A stretch of 63,993 bases of DNA, filler included, from Basidioascus undulatus (taxonomy: Eukaryota), in the NCBI GenBank assembly GCA_000826855.1. It is 6 parts of 6 records of this genome, joined end to end, with 100 filler letters (N's around TTAATTAATTAA, not from the genome) between each part and the next. Parts side by side here need not be neighbours in the genome. Positions count along the whole stretch, not along the records: positions 10,837 to 21,565 come from JTLS01001094.1; 5 more parts are not named here. The stretch is one strand, 5' to 3'. The notes below the pieces were generated by a model. That model was not told the DNA's origin. It saw only the letters and a list, made by a program, of their open reading frames with translations, and made no database searches. Below, piece by piece: positions 8,017 to 54,133 of the stretch. The first letter of the stretch is position 1. Each line of letters starts with the position of its first letter. The translations under genes were made by a program, and so were the position numbers.

Positions 8017-10736
8017 TCAGGCGGGACGCATCCTACGGAGCGGAGGTAAACGACACGTTCTCTGTAGCAGTCGACGAGGAAGCGACACTCACGGACTCAG
8101 CCACTTCTCAGCCTTCTCGAAAGCCGCTGCGAGCTTCGGTTCGATCGCCTTGTCCGCGCTGAGCGTACGGACAGCCACCAGCGCCTGGGAATCGTCGCTC
8201 GTTATCAGTGGCCGATCTCAAAAATAGCAGCCGAGAGGCGAGAGGCGGGGAAGATGGGATGAAGAAGGAAGGACGGGCGAGAGGCGAGGCAAGGAGATAG
8301 GATGCAGAACGCAGGAGGCGAAAGATGTGGGATGTGGGCGATCGACTCACCGCGTCCCAGAACCTGAATCCCCGCATCAGATCCGCGTGCGTGTCCTTGA
8401 CGCTCGTAAAGTGGTCGCTGAGCGTCTCCTGCGCGTCGCGCTTGGCCTCGAGCACGCTCTCCTTGTCTTTGTCCGCCTCCGTCACCGTGCCCTCCGCGAA
8501 CGTGACGAGCGCGTCGAGGTAGACCTGCGAACATCCCACCCGTCGGCCCACTCAGCAAGCGTGTTCGGTCAGCGGAAGGATGCCAGGGAAGGACAGACAG
8601 ACCTTGAAGAAGATCCCGAACCCCGAGTTCACATCGTTCTGGAACGGCAAGCTCAACGCGATATCAAGGTAGTCCTCGCGCAGACGCTTCGCGTCGCCAC
8701 GGAGGAGCATGCTCGCGGCGGCGGCCTCCGCGAGCGTGCGCACGGAGCGCGCCATGCCCTTCACGAATGAGTTGAAGACGAGGAGCTCGCGCGAGAGCGG
8801 GCCGGACCATTGCTCGGACTGCCCGGCGCGCGGCGGGGAGGGGGATGAGAATGTGAGGGGCTGAAGGATGGGGGATGGGGGAGACGGACCTTGAACACGA
8901 GGGGAACGACGCTGAGCGTCCGGATGATCAGGAGCATGCTCCGCTTCTCGTCCTCTGTTCCCTCGCACACACCACCATCCATCCGTCCATCCATCAGCTT
9001 TCTCCTTCTCTTCTCCCTCTTCGTACGGGCGGGGCACTCACCCGTCCCAAAGCTCGGCCCGCCACTGTAGGCCTTTCCGCCAAACAGGTCCGCATGGAGG
9101 ACCTTGGCGCGGAGGAGCTCGATAAAGATATACAGCGGCTCCTGGAACTTGTCGTTCAGCCTGCTGACGGCGAGCGCGTTGTGCATCGCGCGCGCGTAGG
9201 GCGTGTGCGTGTGCTGCTGCGTGAGGAATCTGTGCGGGGGTCGAGCTCGCCGATCAGTAACTCGGTTTGGTACGGATAAGAGGAAAGCGGGGAAGCGGGG
9301 AAGTCGGAGAGGAGAGGAGACGGGCGGAAGACACGACGCACCCCCGCAGCTCGAGAACCCTCCAAACCGTATTCGCGACAATCTCGTCCTTTTTCTGTAG
9401 CGGGGGGACATCGGGGGAGCGGGGCGTGCGCGTCCGCGCTGCGAGCTTGTCCGACGTCGTCGCTCCGAGGCAGAGCGCAAAATCGATGGTCGATGACTGA
9501 TCCCCACCCGTGCATCAGCTTCCGAATAAAACATGATTAACGAGGGGGCGGTGGAGCGGAGAGATGGTACTGAGGGAGGGAGAGAGGATGGGGATGGGGT
9601 GGAGAAGGAGAACGCACGTTCTGTCTCCGCAGCTCCTCCTCGATCACGGGCGCGTGAACGTTCCAACCCTCGACGGCGCGCTTGACGAGCTCGACCGTCG
9701 CGGGCGCGTTGTGCGCGATCTGCTGCGCGTGCGGGTGGAAGTAGTAGTATGCGTAGACGGGGCGAGATTTCCTGGTATGCAGACCGTAAGCTTTCAGGCC
9801 CCGACAGAGAACGGCACGTGAGCAACCGCGCTCACCAGAACGCGTTCAAGCTCTGCGCAAACAGCGCAACCGCCACATTCCTCGGCGCATTCACGCCCTC
9901 CGTCAGCCCCTCCTTCACAAAAGTCCTATACTCGTTGCTCTCCCCCCCATCAAGCGGTGGGACCTCCTGCACCCCCCCCTGGGCGAGCGCGTTGAGCGCC
10001 CAGGGGCCAACGAGCCCGCGGCAGAGGTGGAAGTACACCTCGTCGGGGAGGCGCGGGCTGAAGACCTCGGCGAGGTCGGAGGGGATGTCGGCTGCGGAGA
10101 GGGCGGGGGCCGGTGGAGGGGGAGGGAGCGCCAGGGGGAGGGGCAGCACGCGGCCTTCTTCGGCGGCGAGAATAAGCGAGAAGCGGAGCAAAGTGGAAGC
10201 GCGCTGGTACGCCTCGGCGTAGTTGGTCGACTCCAGGAGGGGGTGCGGCCGGAAGGATTGGAGGGCGTTCCAGCCGGTTCGGAAGCTGTGGGGGGAGAGG
10301 GGGTTGAGCGTCGGGGGGAAGGGAGGAGGGGGAAAGGAGGTGGAAAGACGCACTGCCGAACAGTCTCGACAACCTGCTTGAACTCAAAGTCCTGACTGGC
10401 GGGGGGGAACGTGCCGCAGCAGTCGATGCCAGCAAGGAGCGCGACGTCGACGAACTGGTCATCGCCGAGCTTGATGTCGGCCAGGAGCGGGCGCTTCGCG
10501 ACCCAGGTGAACGTCCCGGCGCGGAGGTCAAGGGAGGTGATGAGCTTGTCGGTCTGGGGGTACAGCAGCTGCTCCGTCGGGCCGTACACGGCGTGGATGT
10601 ACGACTTAGGGTGGTTCGCGAGGTAGACGAGTTGGGGCCACGACACGTAGGGGGCGACGATGAACTCGACGTGGCGCTGCCTGAACAGCTTATGCACGAG
10701 CCTGAGCAAGTCGGGCGGCCAAACAGCAGGCTTGTC
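8017..10736 (-). CDS. MKT1: MKT1-family XPG/PIN-like post-transcriptional regulator; 5' part cut by contig end
   Basis: VEFIVAPYVSWPQLVYL..HPKSYIHAVYGPTE (XPG-I-like), FSPRLPDEVYFHLCRGL, EVPPLDGGESNEYR, WSGPLSRELLVFNSFVK, LSLPFQNDVNSGFGI, DLMRGFRFWDA. Confidence 0.88.
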
Positions 10737-10836
10737 NNNNNNNNNNNNNNNNNNNNNNNNNNNNNNNNNNNNNNNNNNNNTTAATTAATTAANNNNNNNN
10801 NNNNNNNNNNNNNNNNNNNNNNNNNNNNNNNNNNNN
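10737..10836. other. Artificial contig linker N44-TTAATTAATTAA-N44
   Basis: Exactly 100 bp with a six-frame stop 12-mer; identical to the other four linkers. Confidence 0.98.
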
Positions 10837-11044
10837 CACCAACCCACCTCGCCCTCCCCCATCGACCCCTGGGCAGCATTACGCCCCGCGCGCAGCTCAG
10901 GGGCAAGCACGCTCCCTACGCCTGCGCGCCACTCGGCGAGCTGGTCCGCGATCATGCGCTCAATGGGCAGCGCCGCGAACGCGGGCGGGAGGGCGAAATC
11001 CGTGCAGAGCGAGTGGGCGAGCATGCGCGGGGTGATGTGCGGTT
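10837..11044 (-). CDS. SNF5/SFH1-like repeat fragment (single recognisable exon, runs into contig end)
   Basis: EPHITPRMLAHSLCTDFALPPAFAALPIERMIADQL resembles the SNF5 repeat ITPExFAxxLCxDLxLPxxFxxxIxxxIxxQ; preceded by acceptor AGACAG. Confidence 0.5.
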
Positions 11045-12467
11045 CTGTCTCCGTGACCAATGAGCAGAAGTGCAGAAGGCCGGTGTGCAACTTCGACCTT
11101 TGCATGCTGCATGTTCTGCCCAACAGCCAACAGCAGGCAGGCTCAATTCCATGTCTCGCGTGGAAGTGAGGTGTCAGTAGCTGGGTTCGGTCTGGGGCGG
11201 TGAGGGGGGGATGTCTGCTGCGTATCTTTCCTTCGCAGAGTCCGATAGCTACCGGGACTGGACATGACATGCAGAAATGGGCGCTTCTTATCTACTTGTG
11301 CACGTTGGAAGATTTCTTCACTCTGGCGAGAAGGACAGTCCAGCAGTAGGAGTACGTTTCTTTCCCAAGAGTGAGATCTTCACGCAACGTAAGCCTCCCT
11401 CTTCGCATGCTGTCCATCCATCTCACATGCCTCTTTGGCCTTCAAAACCCCAATGCTGAAGGCTCGACTCTAGAGAAATAACACAAAGCATTACTTACCG
11501 CCCATCAGTGCGAGTGGTGCTGCGTTTGCAAGGCGCTATATGTATACCGATGTAGCGCAGCGAACATCCGACATGCCTGAACGGCGTTCTATACCTTCAC
11601 GTTCTGGCTGCGACCACCTAACCAAGTCAAGGCAGCTTCTCGTAGGTCGGCGTGTTGTCCTTCGATTATCGGCAGTCGGTCATCTCTAGACGCAGGACAA
11701 CGGTTGAGGACGTCGAGCGGCGGTGTCGTGTCCGCCCTCCCGTGTTTCTTGTGCGCACTCTGGGTCTTTAGCCTGAATGGGTCAATGAGCAGTTCCAACA
11801 AACGGGGAAGGTTAGTATTGACAAAGTCTGAATGGGGCTAGAATGTTTCAGGTGGTCCGCGCTTTCAGGTCGGCTGCGGAGCTTGTTACCTTTCCATGTC
11901 GAGAGCACGCACCGTCCACACTTCTGTATTCAAGGCAGTTCCGGTACGCCTCCAAGTTTCACCCGAAAGATGTGGCCCGGCGTTTGCCACCAGGCACGCT
12001 GCTACAGGGCCTGCAAGATCGTCAGTCATGCAGGTCGCAGCAGCGGCTCAGATTCAGCCCTTCTTTCCACATCTGACGGGTCACGTCCCTGTTATACGGG
12101 AGAGGTTTTGGTACAGGTATAGCATTTATAACAGCATTATGTTCCGCAGCTCAGCAAGGGATCTCCGCATGCAAGCGAAGCGGTATACGAGCAGCCTTCT
12201 TGTGAGCGCTACCACCCTGTCTTCACAGCTAGCGAATGTCCATAAAGCGACTGAACTGGATGTACGAGAGGATTTCATTTACTTTATTGCCCTTTGGAGG
12301 AAACGGATTTGACAGGCCTTTGAGAATGCCTAGATTGGCGTCGCCTCCCGGTGGGTTCAGACCCAGTTGCAGAGCCGCCTGCATGCCTGCTGAGGCTGGG
12401 CCCGTCGGGCAGTGACCGTCAACGCCTTACCTGCTCTCCCACTTACCGCTCTCTGTTAATCATTCTA

Positions 12468-14045
12468 ATGCCTGGATTTGATCGTAAGCTATCTCAACAT
12501 GTGTCAAACTCTCACGCCGGAGCTTCAAAACGATATCGTGGCACATCTGCCCTTTCGTTCACAGATCTCGCTCTCGCTCGTCTGCCAGCCTCTCCGCGCG
12601 CTCGTTGCGCCTGCTCTCTTTTTCTCTCTTCACTTCGACTGGACTCGCAATGGAGAAGTGCCCACTTGCCTCTCTAACCTTTGCCTAAGCGCTATGCGGG
12701 AGAGCGCGCTCCGGGAGCTACGTGTCAAGTGTTGGCGGTCGGTCTCGAACAACGGCAGGCGGCTCAGGAAGAACCGAGATGATGAGCTGACTCATTTCAC
12801 TCTTTGCCTTTACGAGAACGCCCAGCTAAGCTACCTGGCATATTCCAGCTTGCTCGCTCTCCGTCAATGGCCGGACGTCAAGCTCTGCACGTTACACGTA
12901 GAAGACTACGTGTCGGCGCTAGTCGAGGTGCTGAGAGCCCATCAGCCGCTTCTCGAGGAGCTTACGGTTCTGTAAGTAGTATGCTTTCCTCCGTGCAATC
13001 ATCGTCTGCTGAAGCTTTCGGTGCACAGTACAATGCCTTGCGGATGGCGCTCCCTCGCTTCGCTGCCTTTCTTGCGCGTCCTGTACATCGACGACTACTT
13101 TCACAACCCTCCTCCGCGTCTTCCAAAGCCCTACACACCGAACCTCCTGTCCGGTCGGACGTCTCCCTTTCCCTCCCTGCCGCCAACTTCCCACCCGCTG
13201 CGCACCTCCGCCCCGGACTGTCATCCCGGTCCTTCCTGCGCTCGCTCTCGATCAACCAACACATCATCTCATCAGACCTCGACACTTCCATTCCTCACCT
13301 CCTCTTTTCCCACGTTCCGAGGGCTCTAACTCTCACATCGCTCGCGCTCGTCTTGCCTTAACCATCGGCGATTTCGAAGCTGAGCACCTCGCCTCTCTCC
13401 TGGACGCGCACGCCGACGCGTTCCCCTCTCTCGAGCGCTTCAGCATGATCGAAGACTCGCCCGATGAGCAATTGTTCACGTGGTCGGTTCTCGAGGCGTA
13501 CCGGCCGGAGGAACACATCGTCGTGTTTCGCGTCGACCCCTTGGCTGACGTGCTGCGGCGGTTTCTGGGCGGCCAGCGGCTCTGCGATCCCTCACGCTGC
13601 CCCTCAACTCGTTTCTAATGAGCGGGGTGATGCTCGAGGATGCTCGAGAAACGAACACCAGTGCCGTTGACCTTGGTCTTGACGTAGGGGATCTAAGGGG
13701 TGGACGACCTGCATCGCAGAAATCTCCTCGAGTCGACTTCGTTCGCTTAGCATGGTTGCATGCAGAGTTCTAAAAGACGACGAAGTGCCAATGCTTTGTT
13801 TGGGACGCGTTTCCTCTTCGTTGCCTAATGTTTCTTCCGACAGTCCCCACCCATTAAACCATCCAACCTCGCGCCCCTCTCGTACCAACCTCCGCCGTCT
13901 CTCTCTCAGCTTCTGGTCCTATCCTGGAGAGCCCCCCGCCCCCGTTCCACCAGACGAATACCGCGCGGTTCTACCGCAGTTGGAGCGTTTGACGGTCAAC
14001 GAGCGGATGTGGGCGTGGACTCGGGGTTCCGGGAAGTCAGGGTAG
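12468..14045 (+). pseudogene. F-box/LRR-like protein, probably degenerate
   Basis: F-box-like LTPELQNDIVAHLPFRSQISLSLVCQPLRALV followed by LRR-like pieces (LRELRV, LEELTV, LRVLYI, LRSLSI, LRRLSL, LERLTV) in changing frames. Confidence 0.55.
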
Positions 14046-14062
14046 CTCGGTAGAGCCGTAGG

Positions 14063-14115
14063 AGCACGGATGGATGCTTCGTCACCGCAGCACGGCATGG
14101 ATGCTTCGTCACCGC
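14063..14115 (+). repeat. Near-perfect 26-27 bp tandem duplication
   Basis: GCACGGATGGATGCTTCGTCACCGCA followed by GCACGGCATGGATGCTTCGTCACCGCA. Confidence 0.85.
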
Positions 14116-14515
14116 AGGACGGCAGAGCGCAAGAGTGCACTTCGTATGGCGAAATATGAGGCTACGGTGGACAGAGGGAGCAGCTGGGCGCTCAGCACAG
14201 CATGCAGTGATCCTTGACTCGGCCAAGCATCACACCCGTTTATCGTTAAAAGGGACTGTGTTCCTAAGCATTGCATAAACATTCTGCTATGCCGTCAAAG
14301 AAAGGCAGTCTAGATTCTCAAGTCACTAAATGGTCTAACTTTCTTGTTCCACCAAGTTTGCTCTTCTGTGCTCTGCCGCTTGCTGGAAATGAAACCCGCC
14401 TCTTTCTACATATATAGGCTCTATAATAAAATCAGTCCAGTGAGTATTTCCACCAAAAAGAAGGCAAAGGCGCTAAATAGCGTCAAGTCTAAATTGGACA
14501 GGTTCAAAAGGTAAG

Positions 14516-14598
14516 CTCTCTGGCCGGGAATTGAACCCGGGTCGCCCGCGTCACTGTTGAATGACAAGCGGATATACTAGCCACTATACTACCAAAGA
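14516..14598 (-). tRNA. tRNA-Asp(GTC) with an 11-nt canonical intron
   Basis: Reverse strand TCTTTGG-TA-GTATAGTGGCTAGTAT-A-TCCGC-TTGTCA[ttcaacagtga]C-GCGGG-CGAC-CCGGG-TTCAATT-CCCGG-CCAGAGA-G; stems pair and A/B boxes are present. Confidence 0.95.
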
Positions 14599-14813
14599 GT
14601 TGAAAGTGATAACCATTTATATGGTTCCAAAAGCACCGATAAGTCGCACGGAATTAACATGACTCAGGATGCTATCGTTTCCTTCTACTCATCTGTGTAG
14701 CCTCGCACGCATCGCATTTCGCAACCCGGACACTCCCCTTCCTATCCTCACGTACTTCGCATCGCATAGTTACCAAAACTTAGCACTCCACGGTCGCACA
14801 CCACACCGTGCGG

Positions 14814-16248
14814 ATGGCCGCTCCCGAGGTGATGAGGGCTTCCATACGGGCCAGTCACGAGCTGCTGGATGCTATGGAATCATTCACTCCCTACTTCGCG
14901 CTTAGCGACTACCCGAAGAGGTGGGCCACTTACCTCCTCGCGTGGTACAGGGCAGTGCCGGTCAAGGCTATCATCGCAGAGTCCGTACGGGAGGGATATC
15001 TACCCCGTGATGGCAGCTCCATTCTCGTACTCAGAAGGGAAGCTCCCGCGAGGCTCCACCACCACCCCCAGTGTCCAGGCCATCAGTAATGACTTGTATC
15101 ACCACACAGGCCTTGCCAGGGAGGTGGGTACGGCGGCTTTCAGGGACTCCTTCCGACTCGTGGACGCAGGCGTCATCCTGGTGAAGAGAGTGTATGCTAC
15201 CCACACAACACACCCGAGTCTTTTTCATGGAGGCAAGCATGCAGGTAGAGGCTTTGTGTCAACTGCTCCACGCCTCCTCCAACTTCGATGGGGCTCCTGT
15301 GAAACTCATATGCATGGGGGCTGCCGCAAAACGGATGGCTGCCTCTCTCAAGAGTTCGTTCAGGTCCCCCACGATCTACGCCGCGCCCCACCCCGGGTAC
15401 ATCGCGCGTAAGTTCGAGGATCTCAACAGCCAGCAGGCTGTTCCCGACACCGAGAGATTCTCTAGTGCTCTCCGTGAGGCCATTTGCAGCATCACAATCG
15501 ACTCTGCCGCCCCCGGATCTATGTCACGTTCTTCAGCAGCTGACGAGGTCCGTAAGCGCACCACTCTTGACATAGCCAACAGTTGCAGTGCCGCACTCAC
15601 CGACGCTGCCCTGAGTGGTGATCACCTTGAAGTTCACCTCAAGAGACTAGTCATCGCTGCCGAGGGTTCAGGGAACCCCGAGCTGGCGGCTACCGCGAAG
15701 GGGCTTGTCGAGGCGATGAACGGGTGGAAGAGGGACATCCTTACCACTGCGAAGCGCATCCAGTACGCCGACTACTCCGTGGCTTCGTCCGCTGCGTCTA
15801 CGATAGGCGCCCGCCCGGGTCCCAACATCAGCCACGTCCAGGCTGCTGCTCCCACTGGTAGTATGTACTCAGGCGGTGCCCCTCAGAGCAGCCGCGGCAG
15901 CCGGCCCCAGTCAAGTCGCGTACCATGTCCCTTCCTCCTGAGGATCAGTCTACCACACCTTAGACTCTTACGAAGAGGTCTACTGCTACGTCCCTGACCA
16001 GGACGCCTGCCTCGCCGCCGCGCCCGCAGCCGGCTAAGAGGGGTGGTCTTGGGTTCTCGATCTCGCCATTCGGAGCCGGTGCCGCGCCGCCTGCCAGGGC
16101 CTCTGCCTCCCCTAAGCCCGAGCGCATCGAGATAGAGGAGTCCGACATGCCCAGCCTTAAGGTGCTGAGGGACGCCATCGAGGAGATCGCTACCATGCAT
16201 CAGGGAGACCCTGCTTATGCGGAGCGGGCGGCGCGGGCGGGGCTGTAG
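14814..16248 (+). pseudogene. Intronless, frameshifted, divergent uracil-DNA glycosylase (UNG-fold)-like gene with a long C-terminal extension; candidate endogenous viral/extrachromosomal element
   Basis: Joining frames gives, in UNG order, GRDIYP, AAPFSY, TPSVQAISNDL, AGVILV, KLICMG and IYAAPHPGY; three apparent frameshifts and one in-frame TAG; no evident introns over about 1.4 kb. Confidence 0.6.
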
Positions 16249-16845
16249 TGGGGTTTTGGGGAGGGTATGCAGCAGGGTTAGGGTATAGCGAATAGGGAGG
16301 GGTAACATGCCAGCGGTGTTTAGACACAACAGCGGGTGAACTACATGGTGATACAGAGGATTAGGGATGCTACTGACCGCAGTGGACTCGTACTTACTTC
16401 TTGGTGCCGCCACCGTTTGAGGCCTACCCTAAGCCAGACCTCTTCTCAACGATGTGGATGCAAGCTCCCTCATTTTCTGATACTTAGGTTTGCGGAAAAG
16501 ACCCATATTCTTTCGTTCTTTCTCTACTGCAATGCACACGTTGACCCAGCAGCGCCTCTTGTCTGACTCAAATGGCTTGAATACGCGTAATGCCGGTATG
16601 CCACCGAAGGAGATCAAACCCAGCCCGCCACAATCGAGGCCTTTCTGTAATACGCTGTTTCGACAGTGTGTTTTGGTCTTCTGATACTACGAGGACGGTG
16701 CCTGGGCTCAATCCTGTTCAGCATTGGTTTCCTGACACCGTCACTCGACTGAAATGCACACACGCCATTCACCCGGGCAACGGGATTTCACACCACAGCG
16801 AGCAAAGAGTTTTGGGCAGCATTCCACAAGGGAACATCAATGCCT

Positions 16846-18899
16846 TCAACACGCCTTGGAGGGGTCGTCCCACCCCCGTGAAACACCAGTGCCGACGAGC
16901 TCGAGGTCCGAGGCGTCCGCGTCCGAAGGGACGTAGGCAAATTTCCTGTCCCAGTACCCGTTGCGCTCCCCCTCACCATCCAAGTCGAAGTCGACTTCTT
17001 GCTGCTTGACGATCGTGATCTGACCCGGTGGCAGACGACTCGTGGACACGGCCCCGAGTGCAACGCTCACTGCGCGGCTGCGGGTGGTCGAGCGGTCGAG
17101 GCTGGGGAGCGAAGCGTAAGAAGGTGAGGTGAGCTCGTGCAAGCATGAATGGAACGATACCCGTTGTCGAGGCCGTAGCACCGCAGGTCAACCATCGCGC
17201 GGCAAGAGAGGATTACGCTGAAAGTGAATTGGGGAACCTACGAGGGCGGCCGTCAGAGGTCCGAAATAGTACTGACGCGGTTTTTAGGGCATACCATAGT
17301 AACGAGCTTGTAAATACGTTTGAGTGAGCTGGTGCAGACGAGGCTTTACAGGTTCAGGAACCGGTACACTCACATTCATCTGGCGGGTAGTCACGGTGCC
17401 GCCACGTCAGCCCGTGCATAGGAGGTCAAAATAAAAACCAGAGACGAACAAGTGAGTTTAAGTTAAGTATTTCGAAAACGAGCGTGAGGATGTTGAGCAA
17501 TAGGACGACGAGGAAGTATCCCTGCGAGGAGCACGATTTCAGTTTGTGTCGCAGTGCGGGTCAGCCCAGTCTCCCTTACCATCCCATCCCGAATGAGTAG
17601 TGCTTGCACCCCGGAGAAGTGTGACGACCGCCCAGTCCGCCCATAAATTAGACGGTACATGGTCACGACGGTGACAAACGCATCGTAAAAGACGGCTACG
17701 TCGGACCGAACTCAGTACTGCTTCAGGCGCTCTGCAGATGGTTGACATCGCTCACTGTAGGCCACAGCAGCTGCGGCGTCGAGTTGGAGTCAGCACTTCT
17801 GTAGAATCGGGCCATGGGTACTCCGCACATAGCTCGAGTGTACGTACCAAGCGTTGCGGACCAGTTGATTGTGGTAATACTGCACATCTGCTGGGACGGT
17901 ACCCAGACGGCCGTAGGAAGGGAGATATCTGGCGCAAGTAGAACACGTAAGAAGAGCCGGGAGTGGGCGCCCTCCAGTGACCGCCCAACGTACTCCAAGC
18001 CCACTGGCGCATGCGAAGTCAGCGCGCGCCCAGATGTGCACCAGTGCCACCCATTGTTTGTCTTAACTCACCAGCGCGAGCTGTCCCAGAAGAAGCACGA
18101 AGAGGAGAGCGACGACTACGGCGTTCCCTTTCCAGAGCGCAAGAGCTCTACGAAGGACACTCAATCCGAGCCCATTCTCGCACGTAAGAAACAACGCGTA
18201 CCGCAGCGTGAAGATGCCGCTCGAGCAGGACGACATGATCATCGCGCCGACGACTACGGTCTGGGCGTCTCGGGGGGAAGTCTCAGGAGCTGCCAGTTCG
18301 GGAACCTGAACGGAAGGTACGCACGATGAGCGCGCCTTGGGAAGCGGAGCTGAAAGTTCAGCCGCGCGGCGGAGAAGTTGGACACCGGTGCTCACCTTGG
18401 CAGTCGATCTCGCTCTGGCAACGCGCCGATGTCAGCATGACGAGCACGTCGATGTCGATATCCATACATGAGGACTAACCCTGGATTTGAGCATCGCTGC
18501 CCAAGACGTCTTGTCAGTCCCCCAGACTGCGGTAGCAGCGAAACGACGCAAGAACCCACCGAGTAAAGCGATCAAGGCCATCATGAGCGCCGCTCTGTTC
18601 AGGTAGTAGATAGCAAGCGGCCATTGCAGTTGGACTTTGCCCCTAATCAGACGCATCTCGAACTTGGTCGTGCAGAGGATATCCCAGACGCAGATGCCCT
18701 GCGTGTGCCAGTTCGCAATGTCAGCCCCTCATACTGTCAGGGACAGCAATGCAAGGCGGAAACGTACAGCACAAGCTGCTACAATTCCGTAGAGGGCATC
18801 TGCTTATTCAAGTCAGCATGCGCTGTAGAAGTCTTCCGAAACGATACGGTAGGCACCTTTGTCCTTCAATAGCTGCTCGGGGCTGTGCCAATCTGTCAT
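16846..18899 (-). CDS. Basidiomycete DUF6533-like multi-TM membrane protein, multi-exon, integrity uncertain
   Basis: MTDWHSPEQLLKDK start; WDILCTTKFEMRLIRGKVQLQWPLAIYYLNR; SSGIFTLR|ALALWKGNAVVVALL; LLIRDG; hydrophilic C-terminal tail. Confidence 0.6.
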
Positions 18900-18959
18900 G
18901 CTGTCCCGATTAGGCTGCGTCCCAACGCTTGATTTCTGTAAAGAGAGTGTGGGGGACCG

Positions 18960-21250
18960 TGAACAAGAGTAGTCAATGAGTTGAAGGAAGAAGCGAAGTC
19001 GACAGCAGTCGCTCACAGTGCATTTTCACGGTCACGTTCAGGAGCTCGAAGACCGACACTGGTTGAAGCTGGTCACGAGGACGTGTGGAGGGTTTGGAGG
19101 CATCCCAGTCCGTGGGAAGCTTTAGCGGCATACCAAGCCCTCGAGCTGCTGAGCGACTTTCCATTATTAAAAGAAGCTTATCAGGACTGCCGTGTCTCCT
19201 TAAGGCGCTCACTACCGGCTATGACCGAAGACAAGACCGGCTGCTGGAATCTCCTGACATTGCTGCAGCTGGTGCATACAGATGGAAATTGTGGCAGTGG
19301 GCTGCAGCCGTACTGGTTCATGGCTGCGTCCTTTCACATGTCAATGAGCGCACAACTGGATGCTTCTGGCTTCGACGGGTGCAGCTGACCTAAGCCCGAG
19401 CGTTAGCCTTTGTGAGGAACCAAGAGGAACCGGCGATGATGGTGGCTGCAGGCGATCATCGTTGCCGGCTCCCTTCTTCGATTAATGAGGACACGGGCCC
19501 GTCTCGATTAATGAGGACACGGGCCCGTCTCGGTAACGATTCGATGAGATCAGCATTGTGGAGAATGTAGAGGATAGCCGAGAGCGGGGAGAGGAGCCTT
19601 GCGGCACTCCCACCGGCGCAGGGATGTCCCCGAGAGAATCCCGGTGAATCGGATGGCTGTTTTGCGATTAGCAAGGAACGAAGCAGAATTCGTAGTATTG
19701 GGAGAGGGAGGTTGCCTTTTTAATGTTCTCCAGCAGTTTCATGGAAGACAAGTGTTGAAGGCGCCCTCGGTGTCAAGGGCAAGCCCTCCAAATCCTCGTT
19801 GAAGGGAGCTGGGTAGTGACCTGCTGTCATCGCACTGAGAAGAGAAGGACCGCGAAGGTGTTTCCATCCGCTTATGGACGATTCGGGCCGTGAGGCCATC
19901 CCGTCCTGTCGCCTTGTTGTGCGCCATGAACATTACTGCTTCATCCAGTCCATGGAGCCGGGTTCCAGGGAAGACATGGATGATGAGTAGTTATCGAGCG
20001 GGTTCAGTGTTCACGGGTGGGTGATGATCATCGACTACGAAATTCGCCCGGAAGACCTCCGCCTGTTCCTCCAGGGTTACCACGTATGTCCCGTCGGGAC
20101 GCTCGATGGGAGGAAAGATGGTGCTAGACGAGCTTTTATTAATAATGTACTGGGGTGAAGTAAAAGCGAAGGAGGTGAGGATGGATGGGTAAGTGGTCTG
20201 AATTATGCTCATCGCCAGGGGATCACCAAAAATTTGACGAGTAGGTCTGTAGCTGCATTGTCAGCAAATACGAGGTCCAAGTCATTTCAGTGCCATGAGG
20301 ATGTATGTCTGGACTCGGCTCGGTGAGGCGAGCTCGAGCCCGTGAGAAGCCGCTGTGAAGAGAAGGTCCTCCGATCCATCGTCGTTGAGGCAGAACCCGC
20401 GGGGTTCCGAAAGTCGTTGTGGTTGGTGAATTCACCCATGACGGACATGGTCCACCGTCCCCTCGAGGAAACGAAACAGTATCAAACAGTGAGCGAAAGG
20501 GCGCAAGGGAAGAGAAAGAATCGGGAAGGGGGGGGGGTTGTTATACACGTTGATCAGCGAAGCTACGCGGTCGTCAACGGTGATTTGATTAAGATTATGC
20601 AGATATCTTGGGATGGCGATTGACGTAGGTGGATGTTGGACGGGGATATACGTTTGTTGATGTGAATTGCCGTTCGAAAGCGGTTGGGAGGGTCTGCGTC
20701 AGGTTGTAAGAGAGGAAGGAACGTGTACCAATGTGCGTGAGGTAGTGTATCAAGCGAGTCTTAAATTAGCACTGGTTCCTGTAAAAAGTGCGTCGAACAT
20801 GGATGTAGAAGAGTCATTAAATAGGGACTGTTGGTCGATCGGTGAGTGTCGGACGTTATACGGTTGAGACGTTGAGAGCAACTTCAGGACAGAGAATAAG
20901 ATTCCCTCGGCCCAGCGCCGCACTCCTTGCGCATTGCGATGCCTCCTTCCAGTTGGGGAAGGACTTTGAGGGGGCGCGGTGGTCACCGCCGCAGAGTGTA
21001 AAGGATGGGCCTGACTGGGAATTGAACCTTGGAGGACCTCTCCCAGACATGCGACCGCATGGGCTTCGCGCGCCGAAGGGAAAATCGTACGACTAGACAT
21101 CAGGCTGATGACCGAGCGATAGTATTCTAAATAAGCGAGCAGGGTTGAGTTTGCTGTGAGCGAGTTGCAACAACGACCGGCGGCGCGAGCTCGCGGAAAA
21201 GAAGAGGTGGTCGCCGCTATAGTCAAGCCAGTAAAAATTCAAGGACAGCA
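18960..21250 (-). mobile_element. Degenerate Tad1-like LINE (non-LTR retrotransposon) relic; boundaries approximate
   Basis: In order on the minus strand: gag-knuckle-like LCGGDHRAPSK, APE endonuclease start QPYNVRHS...FDALFxQEP, RT pieces NKATGRDGL, LALDTEGAFN and LSPLSAILYILHNADL; many stops and frameshifts. Confidence 0.75.
19478..19532 (+). repeat. Perfect 26-bp tandem duplication inside the LINE relic
   Basis: TCGATTAATGAGGACACGGGCCCGTC x2 plus TCG. Confidence 0.9.
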
Positions 21251-21565
21251 TGAATGTATGGTTAGACTTGCATAACATAACTTGCTGGTTTCTTGCGCAT
21301 AAAAGACATATTAGCAGCCCGTAAACCACGTGCAAAGTATTCGTCCGCAAGCAAGGCTGACGCCCTCAAATGCAGATGCCGCGTTCCGCCTACCTGCGTC
21401 CGACCAAAAGACGGATAGGCGGTATGCGATGGATCGCTGGCGGGTGCTTAGGCGAACCCAGAGTTACATGAGCTTCAGACAACTGTAATACATCAGCTTC
21501 AGCAGCATCTCTATTGCATTAGCTTAGGGCATCTATGTCACATCGTTTCAGCGTCTGCATGAGCT

Positions 21566-21665
21566 NNNNNNNNNNNNNNNNNNNNNNNNNNNNNNNNNNN
21601 NNNNNNNNNTTAATTAATTAANNNNNNNNNNNNNNNNNNNNNNNNNNNNNNNNNNNNNNNNNNNN
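21566..21665. other. Artificial contig linker
   Basis: N44-TTAATTAATTAA-N44. Confidence 0.98.
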
Positions 21666-32394: not shown

Positions 32395-32494
32395 NNNNNN
32401 NNNNNNNNNNNNNNNNNNNNNNNNNNNNNNNNNNNNNNTTAATTAATTAANNNNNNNNNNNNNNNNNNNNNNNNNNNNNNNNNNNNNNNNNNNN
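32395..32494. other. Artificial contig linker
   Basis: N44-TTAATTAATTAA-N44. Confidence 0.98.
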
Positions 32495-43218: not shown

Positions 43219-43318
43219 NNNNNNNNNNNNNNNNNNNNNNNNNNNNNNNNNNNNNNNNNNNNTTAATTAATTAANNNNNNNNNNNNNNNNNNNNNNNNNN
43301 NNNNNNNNNNNNNNNNNN
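43219..43318. other. Artificial contig linker
   Basis: N44-TTAATTAATTAA-N44. Confidence 0.98.
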
Positions 43319-54033: not shown

Positions 54034-54133
54034 NNNNNNNNNNNNNNNNNNNNNNNNNNNNNNNNNNNNNNNNNNNNTTAATTAATTAANNNNNNNNNNN
54101 NNNNNNNNNNNNNNNNNNNNNNNNNNNNNNNNN
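54034..54133. other. Artificial contig linker
   Basis: N44-TTAATTAATTAA-N44. Confidence 0.98.

Follow-up and report, generated by a model that had tools for sequence, protein, structure and literature searches.

The DNA stretch examined in the present study (63,993 nucleotides (nt), hereafter the window) comes from the fungus Basidioascus undulatus (assembly GCA_000826855.1) and consists of six segments of ~10.7 kb joined by N44-TTAATTAATTAA-N44 linkers at positions 10737-10836, 21566-21665, 32395-32494, 43219-43318 and 54034-54133. As the segments are concatenated, features spanning a linker are artefactual and the true context of any finding extends over ~10.7 kb at most. Segment 10837-21565 holds the remains of a gene related to the uracil-DNA glycosylases (UDGs), present at 14814-16248 of the plus strand as one former reading frame of ~470 codons. 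The locus is probably the relic of a repeated element, which in turn was probably mobile.

A decayed, intronless reading frame

The gene is spread over four stop-to-stop open reading frames (ORFs) in three frames (Table 1). A preliminary description of the window, made from the sequence, had joined three overlapping plus-strand ORFs and a tail ending at the TAG at 16246-16248 into a single frame of about 470 codons, broken by frameshifts and one in-frame TAG. This TAG lies at 15961-15963. The ORFs are present as described, and both third-position GC content and profile matches support their union. Along 14760-16200, third-position GC moves from frame 0 to frame 1, to frame 2 and back to frame 1, which is how a once-coding sequence with frameshifts behaves. 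A profile hidden Markov model (HMM) of five intact homologues matches frame 0 with its positions 38-61 (E 2.6e-4), frame 1 with positions 63-150 (E 1.3e-14) and frame 2 with positions 147-381 (E 6.8e-24). These matches are collinear over the three frames and their junctions are gapless, so that the breaks are frameshifts; introns in their place are ruled out, in agreement with the intronless structure first proposed. In a tblastn comparison of the family proteins with the window this locus was the sole match, with residues 137-380 of the homologue P0001 covering the frame-2 piece (E 7e-24).

Many long ORFs occur on both strands of this GC-rich DNA, and open frames could in principle have arisen here by chance without any gene. 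This explanation is hardly credible given collinear profile matches with E down to 6.8e-24, the tblastn match, a third-position GC content that tracks the frame switches, and the third-position bias of substitutions reported below. The reading frame is a real former gene, far beyond what chance would produce.

The frameshifts themselves, originally placed near 14985, 15190 and 15920, were upheld, and comparison with other natural copies of the gene refined their positions to behind 14973, behind 15185 together with 15221, and behind 15900. In all, the frame of the window copy breaks down four times and is interrupted by one premature stop; the copy lacks the C-terminal domain of its family and is cut on its 5' side. 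It is a dead relic without present function.

Pfam gave no match to the four window ORF pieces, and a word-indexed protein search with the 270-amino-acid (aa) frame-2 piece returned nothing; the same type of search with the family alignment recovered P0004, itself a family member, and no other protein, low-complexity words having filled the candidates. The family C-terminal domain had no significant match in the window tail at 15964-16245 (profile score -1.4). From ~16215 the last ORF piece diverges from the continuation seen in other copies, and a likeness by eye between that continuation and the C-terminal domain was discarded as it had no statistical support. An antisense ORF of 181 aa (15883-16428, minus strand) runs across the 3' half of the relic. 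It has no match in Pfam and most likely arose as a side effect of GC-rich sequence on the coding strand.

Table 1 Features of the UDG-like relic and of its neighbourhood, in window positions
Feature	Position	Strand	Remarks
Stop-to-stop ORF	14784-15089	+	Frame 0, ATG at 14814
Stop-to-stop ORF	14836-15411	+	Frame 1
Stop-to-stop ORF	15185-15997	+	Frame 2
Stop-to-stop ORF	15964-16248	+	Frame 1, TAG stop at 16246-16248
Leader upstream of the ATG	14636..14813	+	Part of the repeated unit; depth jumps from single-copy to repeat level at ~14631
ORF piece 1	14814..14973	+	Frame 0; N-terminal helices to first strand, ending ...YLLAWYRAVPVKAII; profile positions 38-61
ORF piece 2	14974..15185	+	Frame 1; motif A remnant (..PY), AAPFSY, TPSVQAISNDL, GVILV; UDG-like core
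Short stretch between two indels	15186..15221	+	Frame 0 in other copies; gives the N of the GVLLxN motif; read by hand
ORF piece 3	15222..15900	+	Frame 2; KLICMG, APHPGY, helical region, start of Ser/Pro-rich part
ORF piece 4	15901..16248	+	Frame 1; Ser/Pro/Ala-rich tail; TAG 15961-15963; stop 16246-16248
G-rich 3' stretch	16249..16324	+	Repeat depth; holds GGGTTAGGGTA (16275-16285); loose end before 16251
tRNA gene, outside the element	14516..14598	-	Rfam RF00005, 47.7 bits
F-box ORF	12469-12972	+	Pfam; within an apparently intron-split host gene (12469-13618, +), upstream of the tRNA
DUF6533, weak match	18432-18728		Pfam

Homologues and domain architecture

When the 270-aa frame-2 piece was compared by phmmer with 1.84 billion cluster representatives, five proteins matched, of which four are genuine relatives (E 6e-8 to 9e-4): P0001 (641 aa, E 6.4e-8), P0003 (792 aa), and P0004 and P0005 (613 aa each). 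The fifth, P0002, was dropped, being an ankyrin-repeat protein matched via a 31-residue repeat, and P0006 (580 aa), which shares 52% identity with P0001, was added separately. The five intact members thus span 580-792 aa. Their architecture comprises a UDG-like N-terminal domain of ~240 aa, a helical hairpin, a disordered region rich in Ser, Pro and Thr and a small C-terminal helical domain, the part beyond the UDG-like domain amounting to 300-400 aa in all. The helical and then Ser/Pro-rich extension attributed to the window gene at the outset is therefore real. Searches of Pfam, NCBIfam and PHROGs with the window pieces and the homologues gave no match except for a NADAR domain, which is of N-glycosidase type, at residues 14-184 of P0003 (E 2.4e-47; named by both Pfam and NCBIfam), where it is fused to the UDG-like domain.

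P0001 and P0004 are each represented by a single sequence on one long contig (17 and 27 kb, respectively), and P0006 by a single sequence on a 3.2-kb contig. A second and shorter relic was found at 9941-10360 (+) of L001, a metagenome contig of fungal appearance on which an intron-split kinase-like gene lies near the relic. It matches profile positions 22-133 (E 2.9e-11) and covers approximately the N-terminal 110 residues, with GQSPY intact; no tRNA was found near it. The other segments of the window contain no second copy of the UDG-like gene.

An extremely divergent UDG fold

A full-length model of P0004 was poor (pLDDT 53), with a hairpin at ~249-327, disorder at ~330-510 and a confident small C-terminal helical domain. 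Searched with this model, Foldseek gave no significant match, and VIA-align picked up the helical hairpin alone. The N-terminal domain was therefore folded alone, using residues 1-246 of P0006 and a nine-row alignment that includes the window pieces, so that the model represents the domain of an intact homologue and not the broken window protein itself. The domain model (pLDDT 73, pTM 0.73) has four strands (59-62, 131-134, 171-178 and 198-205) in UDG order. All Foldseek matches listed against the PDB are UNG, the best being Coxiella UNG (3tr7, E 4.9e-4, probability 1.0, TM 0.43-0.48). VIA-align, which is independent of Foldseek and covered 48,161 representative chains, ranked Deinococcus radiodurans UNG first (Z 8.0, root-mean-square deviation 4.3, 165 residues aligned), followed by Mimivirus UNG, a putative archaeal UDG, vaccinia D4, MUG, SMUG1, family-4/5 UDGs and TDG; 11 of the 12 top rows belong to the UDG superfamily. 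On a second look with VIA-align, the best 50 rows were all family-1 UNGs (Z 7.0-8.6). UDG-family clusters also came up in the ESM Atlas at 0.85, a lead only.

Profile comparison with several UNGs taken together points the same way. The bacterial UNG alignment used in this comparison comprised ten sequences, namely E. coli K-12 ung and nine from PLSDB (L003 was dropped for an in-frame stop), which are 37-56% identical to E. coli UNG and invariant in GQDPY and HPSP. Aligned with hhalign, the new family matched these ten UNGs with 90.9% probability (E 1.2e-6) over 147 columns at 19% identity; against E. coli UNG alone the probability was 3% (E 0.014). All six UNG motifs fall into register in the same order, with AQSPYP of the new family opposite GQDPYH, AAAMSY opposite GLAFSV, PPT opposite PPS, GMLLIN opposite GVLLLN, ALG opposite LWG and HPASLS opposite HPSPLS. 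Foldseek, VIA-align and hhalign, the structural searches being made with the homologue domain model, thus all lead to UNGs, as the preliminary description had supposed on the strength of motifs alone, and its claim of extreme divergence is borne out by an identity of 19% to bacterial UNGs, against the 37-56% that these share with E. coli UNG. Five of the motif counterparts it named in the window also stand (AAPFSY, TPSVQAISNDL, AGVILV, KLICMG and APHPGY). The sixth, GRDIYP, does not: the true counterpart of GQDPY is Q-S-P-Y, which is split in the window by the frameshift at 14973, and GRDIYP sits just behind it, so that its D is not the catalytic Asp.

The active site appears remodelled in the intact members. 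In UNG the Asp of GQDPY activates the water and the His of HPSP is catalytic, and the roles of other residues are likewise known from the UNG literature. The position of the Asp is occupied by Ser in four of the five intact members and by Asn in P0001, and that of the stacking Phe of GLAFS by Met. All five retain the Tyr of motif A and likewise the Asn of GVLLLN; the window copy has lost this Asn through its indel at 15185. Motif B (HPSPLS) has its His in four of the five homologues and in the window copy (APHPGY), with Asn in P0001; most members keep both the His and the Leu of this motif. Judged from the model and the aligned motifs, the predicted N-terminal domain is a genuine, extremely divergent UDG of family-1 type with a remodelled active site. 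Because the defining catalytic residue is missing, we classify it as UDG-fold and UNG-like, not as UNG.

Copy number and sequence variation

Contigs assembled by Logan from two public DNA runs, X1 and X2, were mapped onto positions 14400-16700. The window copy is present without a difference in both runs, which identifies it as a fixed relic. In X2, where single-copy contigs have a depth of ~18, a variant contig of 626 nt over 14702-15322 has a depth of 527 and differs from the window by 64 substitutions and 11 gap positions, and another of 361 nt over 15760-16119 has a depth of 356. The X2 variants thus stand at ~20-29x single-copy depth, with ~12% divergence from the window. A position in X1 may be covered by as many as four variant contigs, each at about single-copy depth, and two of these variants lie inside 8.6-kb contigs, indicating chromosomal copies.

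Repeat-level depth extends from ~14631 to ~16324, and single-copy sequence resumes from ~16325. On the 5' side, the likeness of the window copy to the repeat ends at 14636, where other copies run into different sequence (two contigs in each run); a 30-nt upstream flank common to the other copies is not found in the window. Contigs of other copies depart from the window sequence before 14636, behind 16215 and before 16251, which indicates truncation or internal deletion of the window copy, together with the loss of the family C-terminal domain from it. The stretch at 16252-16300 is G-rich and includes the telomere-like GGGTTAGGGTA on the sense strand.

The indels by which the variants differ from the window (+5 behind 14973, +1 behind 15185, -2 at 15221 and +1 behind 15900) coincide exactly with the frame changes of the window copy. 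Read by hand with these indels, frame 0 runs through Q-S-P-Y, the Asn of GVILVN is restored and frame 2 passes into frame 1; where the frame of the window copy breaks, the other copies look intact. Substitutions were analysed on the 40 of 141 differences that were listed. Of those inside the ORF, 22 of 24 fall at third codon positions (p 4e-9), and the 16 upstream of the ATG show no codon-position bias. This third-position bias indicates that the gene was under purifying selection as a protein while its copies diverged. In X2, transitions outnumber transversions by 97 to 19.

Origin of the repeated gene

With moderate confidence, we regard window positions 14636-16324 as the dead and truncated remains of an intronless multi-copy gene that belongs to a selfish or repeated element in the genome of this fungus. 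The copies are dispersed and vary in number between runs, as those of transposable elements do, and a multi-copy intronless gene under selection, with varying copy number and dispersed truncated relics, fits a selfish element better than a single captured gene. The lone captured gene envisaged in the preliminary description gives way to one decayed, truncated member of a multi-copy family.

Several observations weigh against a selfish element carrying a UDG-like protein. No full-length element was encountered, and mobility is suggested only by copy number and its variation; moreover, the depths are k-mer depths of Logan contigs, from which the ~20-29 copies are to be read as rough numbers only. 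No terminal repeats or target-site duplications were found around the window copy, which is truncated at both ends. Flanking genes were scanned as 77 ORFs of at least 62 aa in 10837-21565; of the 12 ORFs inside the element, five were scanned separately, namely the four element-frame ORFs and the antisense ORF. None of the 77 flanking ORFs of this 10.7-kb segment carries a transposase, reverse transcriptase (RT), integrase (IN), polymerase or capsid domain. The single-copy records of P0001, P0004 and P0006 are more easily reconciled with a viral or host gene in their sources than with a transposon of high copy number. As regards the protein, fold scores are modest (TM 0.4-0.5, Z ~8) and the model derives from a nine-row alignment, although the structural enrichment for the UDG family is complete despite these scores. 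The Pfam UDG model PF03167 had no match at E up to 10 in any of the nine rows. Nor did the N-domain profile have one among PDB sequences at that threshold, where the full-length profile had a single unrelated match (E 2.8) and no UDG chain. Finally, enzymatic activity of the family is doubtful on the aligned residues, the Asp being missing throughout and P0001 lacking the His as well.

The preliminary description had attributed the gene to a virus or other extrachromosomal element. As an alternative to a selfish element, a large DNA virus, a Polinton-like element or a giant-virus relative may have integrated repeatedly, the window holding one decayed fragment. An intronless gene in an intron-rich host would be consistent with such an endogenous virus, as would the BFVD matches to UDGs of an entomopoxvirus (E 1e-3), a herpesvirus, Marseillevirus and Pithovirus, and the occurrence of P0001 and P0004 as one copy each on contigs of 17 and 27 kb. 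At rank 18 of the BFVD matches stands A0A481YV43, a 723-aa 'NADAR domain protein' from a Marseillevirus-like bin, which, to judge from its name and its structural match to the UDG-like model, may have both a NADAR and a UDG-like domain, like P0003. However, the BFVD matches reflect the generic UDG fold and score no better than cellular UNGs, IMG/VR yielded no sequence relative, the 10.7-kb segment contains no viral hallmark domain, and the X1 variants lie at chromosomal depth in 8.6-kb contigs. Phage and plasmid records likewise yielded no relative, and the prokaryote genomes of GTDB no locus. Viral capture is thus possible but unlikely, the absence of relatives in IMG/VR and in phage and plasmid records and of viral domains in the flanks telling against it.

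It is more improbable still that the relic is a pseudogene of a multi-copy host family, for example a subtelomeric one that is homogenised by recombination and non-mobile. The ~20-29 copies suggested by X2 depth are similar in magnitude to the number of chromosome ends, which is our own estimate for such fungi; the telomere-like GGGTTAGGGTA lies in the 3' part of the repeat, and purifying selection is apparent in the substitutions. Against these points, the window contains no telomere array (no match to two TTAGGG units with at most one mismatch), two runs in which the relic is identical differ several-fold in copy number, and truncated relics are interstitial both here and in L001.

If the host's own UNG1 had given rise to a processed retrocopy or a decayed duplicate, a UDG fold without introns would be accounted for. 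Such an origin is very unlikely given that the family has 19% identity to UNGs which are themselves 37-56% identical to that of E. coli, that the invariant Asp is absent, that the closest relatives form a separate family with a 300-400-aa extension foreign to UNGs, and that no poly(A) tail is present at the 3' end. On this point the preliminary description was right: divergence, an architecture of its own and the lack of introns set the gene apart from UNG1, and a recent retrocopy in particular is very unlikely.

Comparison with known systems and proposed function

UNG is among the most conserved DNA-repair enzymes. The new family shares with family-1 UNG (PF03167 clan) its fold, strand order and six motifs in order and register. 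It differs in having Ser or Asn for the Asp and Met for the stacking Phe, in its ~19% identity, in the additional 300-400 aa and in being multi-copy in a fungal genome. The family-2 and family-3 enzymes MUG/TDG and SMUG1 also have a residue other than Asp at the motif-A position, namely Asn, as in P0001, and they match the model structurally (Z 5.2-5.8). In contrast, family 1 is favoured by the register of the motifs and by the best matches of the new family in fold and profile.

Viral UDGs such as poxvirus D4 and the herpesvirus UL2/UL114-type enzymes provide a precedent for a UDG fold on a selfish replicon, and vaccinia D4 matches the model at Z 6.3 (VIA-align). D4 and the herpesvirus UDGs keep the catalytic Asp. 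The new family differs further in having no sequence relative in the viral collections and no polymerase or partner gene at the window locus. D4 is reported to serve as a processivity factor as well as an enzyme (PMC10253040). In fungal long terminal repeat retrotransposons, a dUTPase located between protease (PR) and RT is described (PMC6431247), and the likeness lies in a selfish element with an anti-uracil function, a function that would here be conjectural; the fold and reaction differ, and there is no RT, PR or IN beside the UDG-like gene. Coprina/Athena Penelope-like elements carry 3' reverse-complement telomeric repeats, a hammerhead ribozyme and an RT (PMC8557442). The telomere-like motif of the window is G-rich on the sense strand, Rfam finds only a tRNA in 13800-17200 and no RT was found in the flanking ORFs. 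A telomeric retroelement of Coprina type is therefore not supported, and the window has no telomere array. No account of a UDG-like ORF in a fungal transposon, transposon class or endogenous virus emerged from a literature search.

The intact protein may deal with uracil, or with a related base that is damaged or modified, within the DNA of the element itself. This proposal is made because pocket residues are kept and because P0003 is fused to a NADAR domain. Its role might be to shield the DNA of the element against deamination or uracil-based mutagenesis; alternatively, the protein could act as a DNA-binding replication accessory in the manner of poxvirus D4. We advance as a tentative possibility, short of an expectation, that it is the signature gene of a so far undescribed fungal selfish element or endogenous DNA-virus lineage, encoding either a counter-defence protein directed against deamination, uracilation or modification of bases in its DNA or a D4-like replication factor, with a recent burst to ~20-29 copies in one strain.

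The window locus itself is a fossil only. Architecturally distinct, the family would form a new branch of the UDG superfamily that retains the UNG scaffold and base-pocket residues, has lost the Asp, has gained a long extension and has multiplied in a fungal genome. It could point to a fungal selfish element, or an endogenous virus, of a class not yet recognised. Were the protective role true, it would be a DNA-level parallel to the retroelement dUTPases and would offer a route into basidiomycete genome defence.

Genomic surroundings

The other segments of the window contain ordinary intron-split host genes, including MKT1, 3-beta-HSD, a PI3/PI4 kinase and a MARCHF6-like gene, and host Pfam domains in the window are scattered as fragments over adjacent ORFs. 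At E up to 0.001, the F-box was the sole match among the 77 flanking ORFs, with no viral or mobile-element domain. F-box ORFs are common in mushroom-forming fungi.

The nearest neighbour of the relic is a tRNA gene, the only Rfam match in 13800-17200 at E up to 1, which ends 38 nt from the repeat boundary. Its anticodon loop reads GUC (Asp) and it carries an insertion of ~11-13 nt (intron); ARAGORN with bacterial settings missed it. The tRNA-Asp gene is multi-copy in both runs. Insertion targeted to the tRNA was considered and rejected: other copies of the tRNA and other copies of the element have unlike flanks, and L001 is without a tRNA. The adjacency of element and tRNA therefore looks incidental. 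Two tandem duplications occur in the flanks, one at 14070-14123 (27 nt x 2, 96% identity) and an exact one at 19478-19529 (26 nt x 2).

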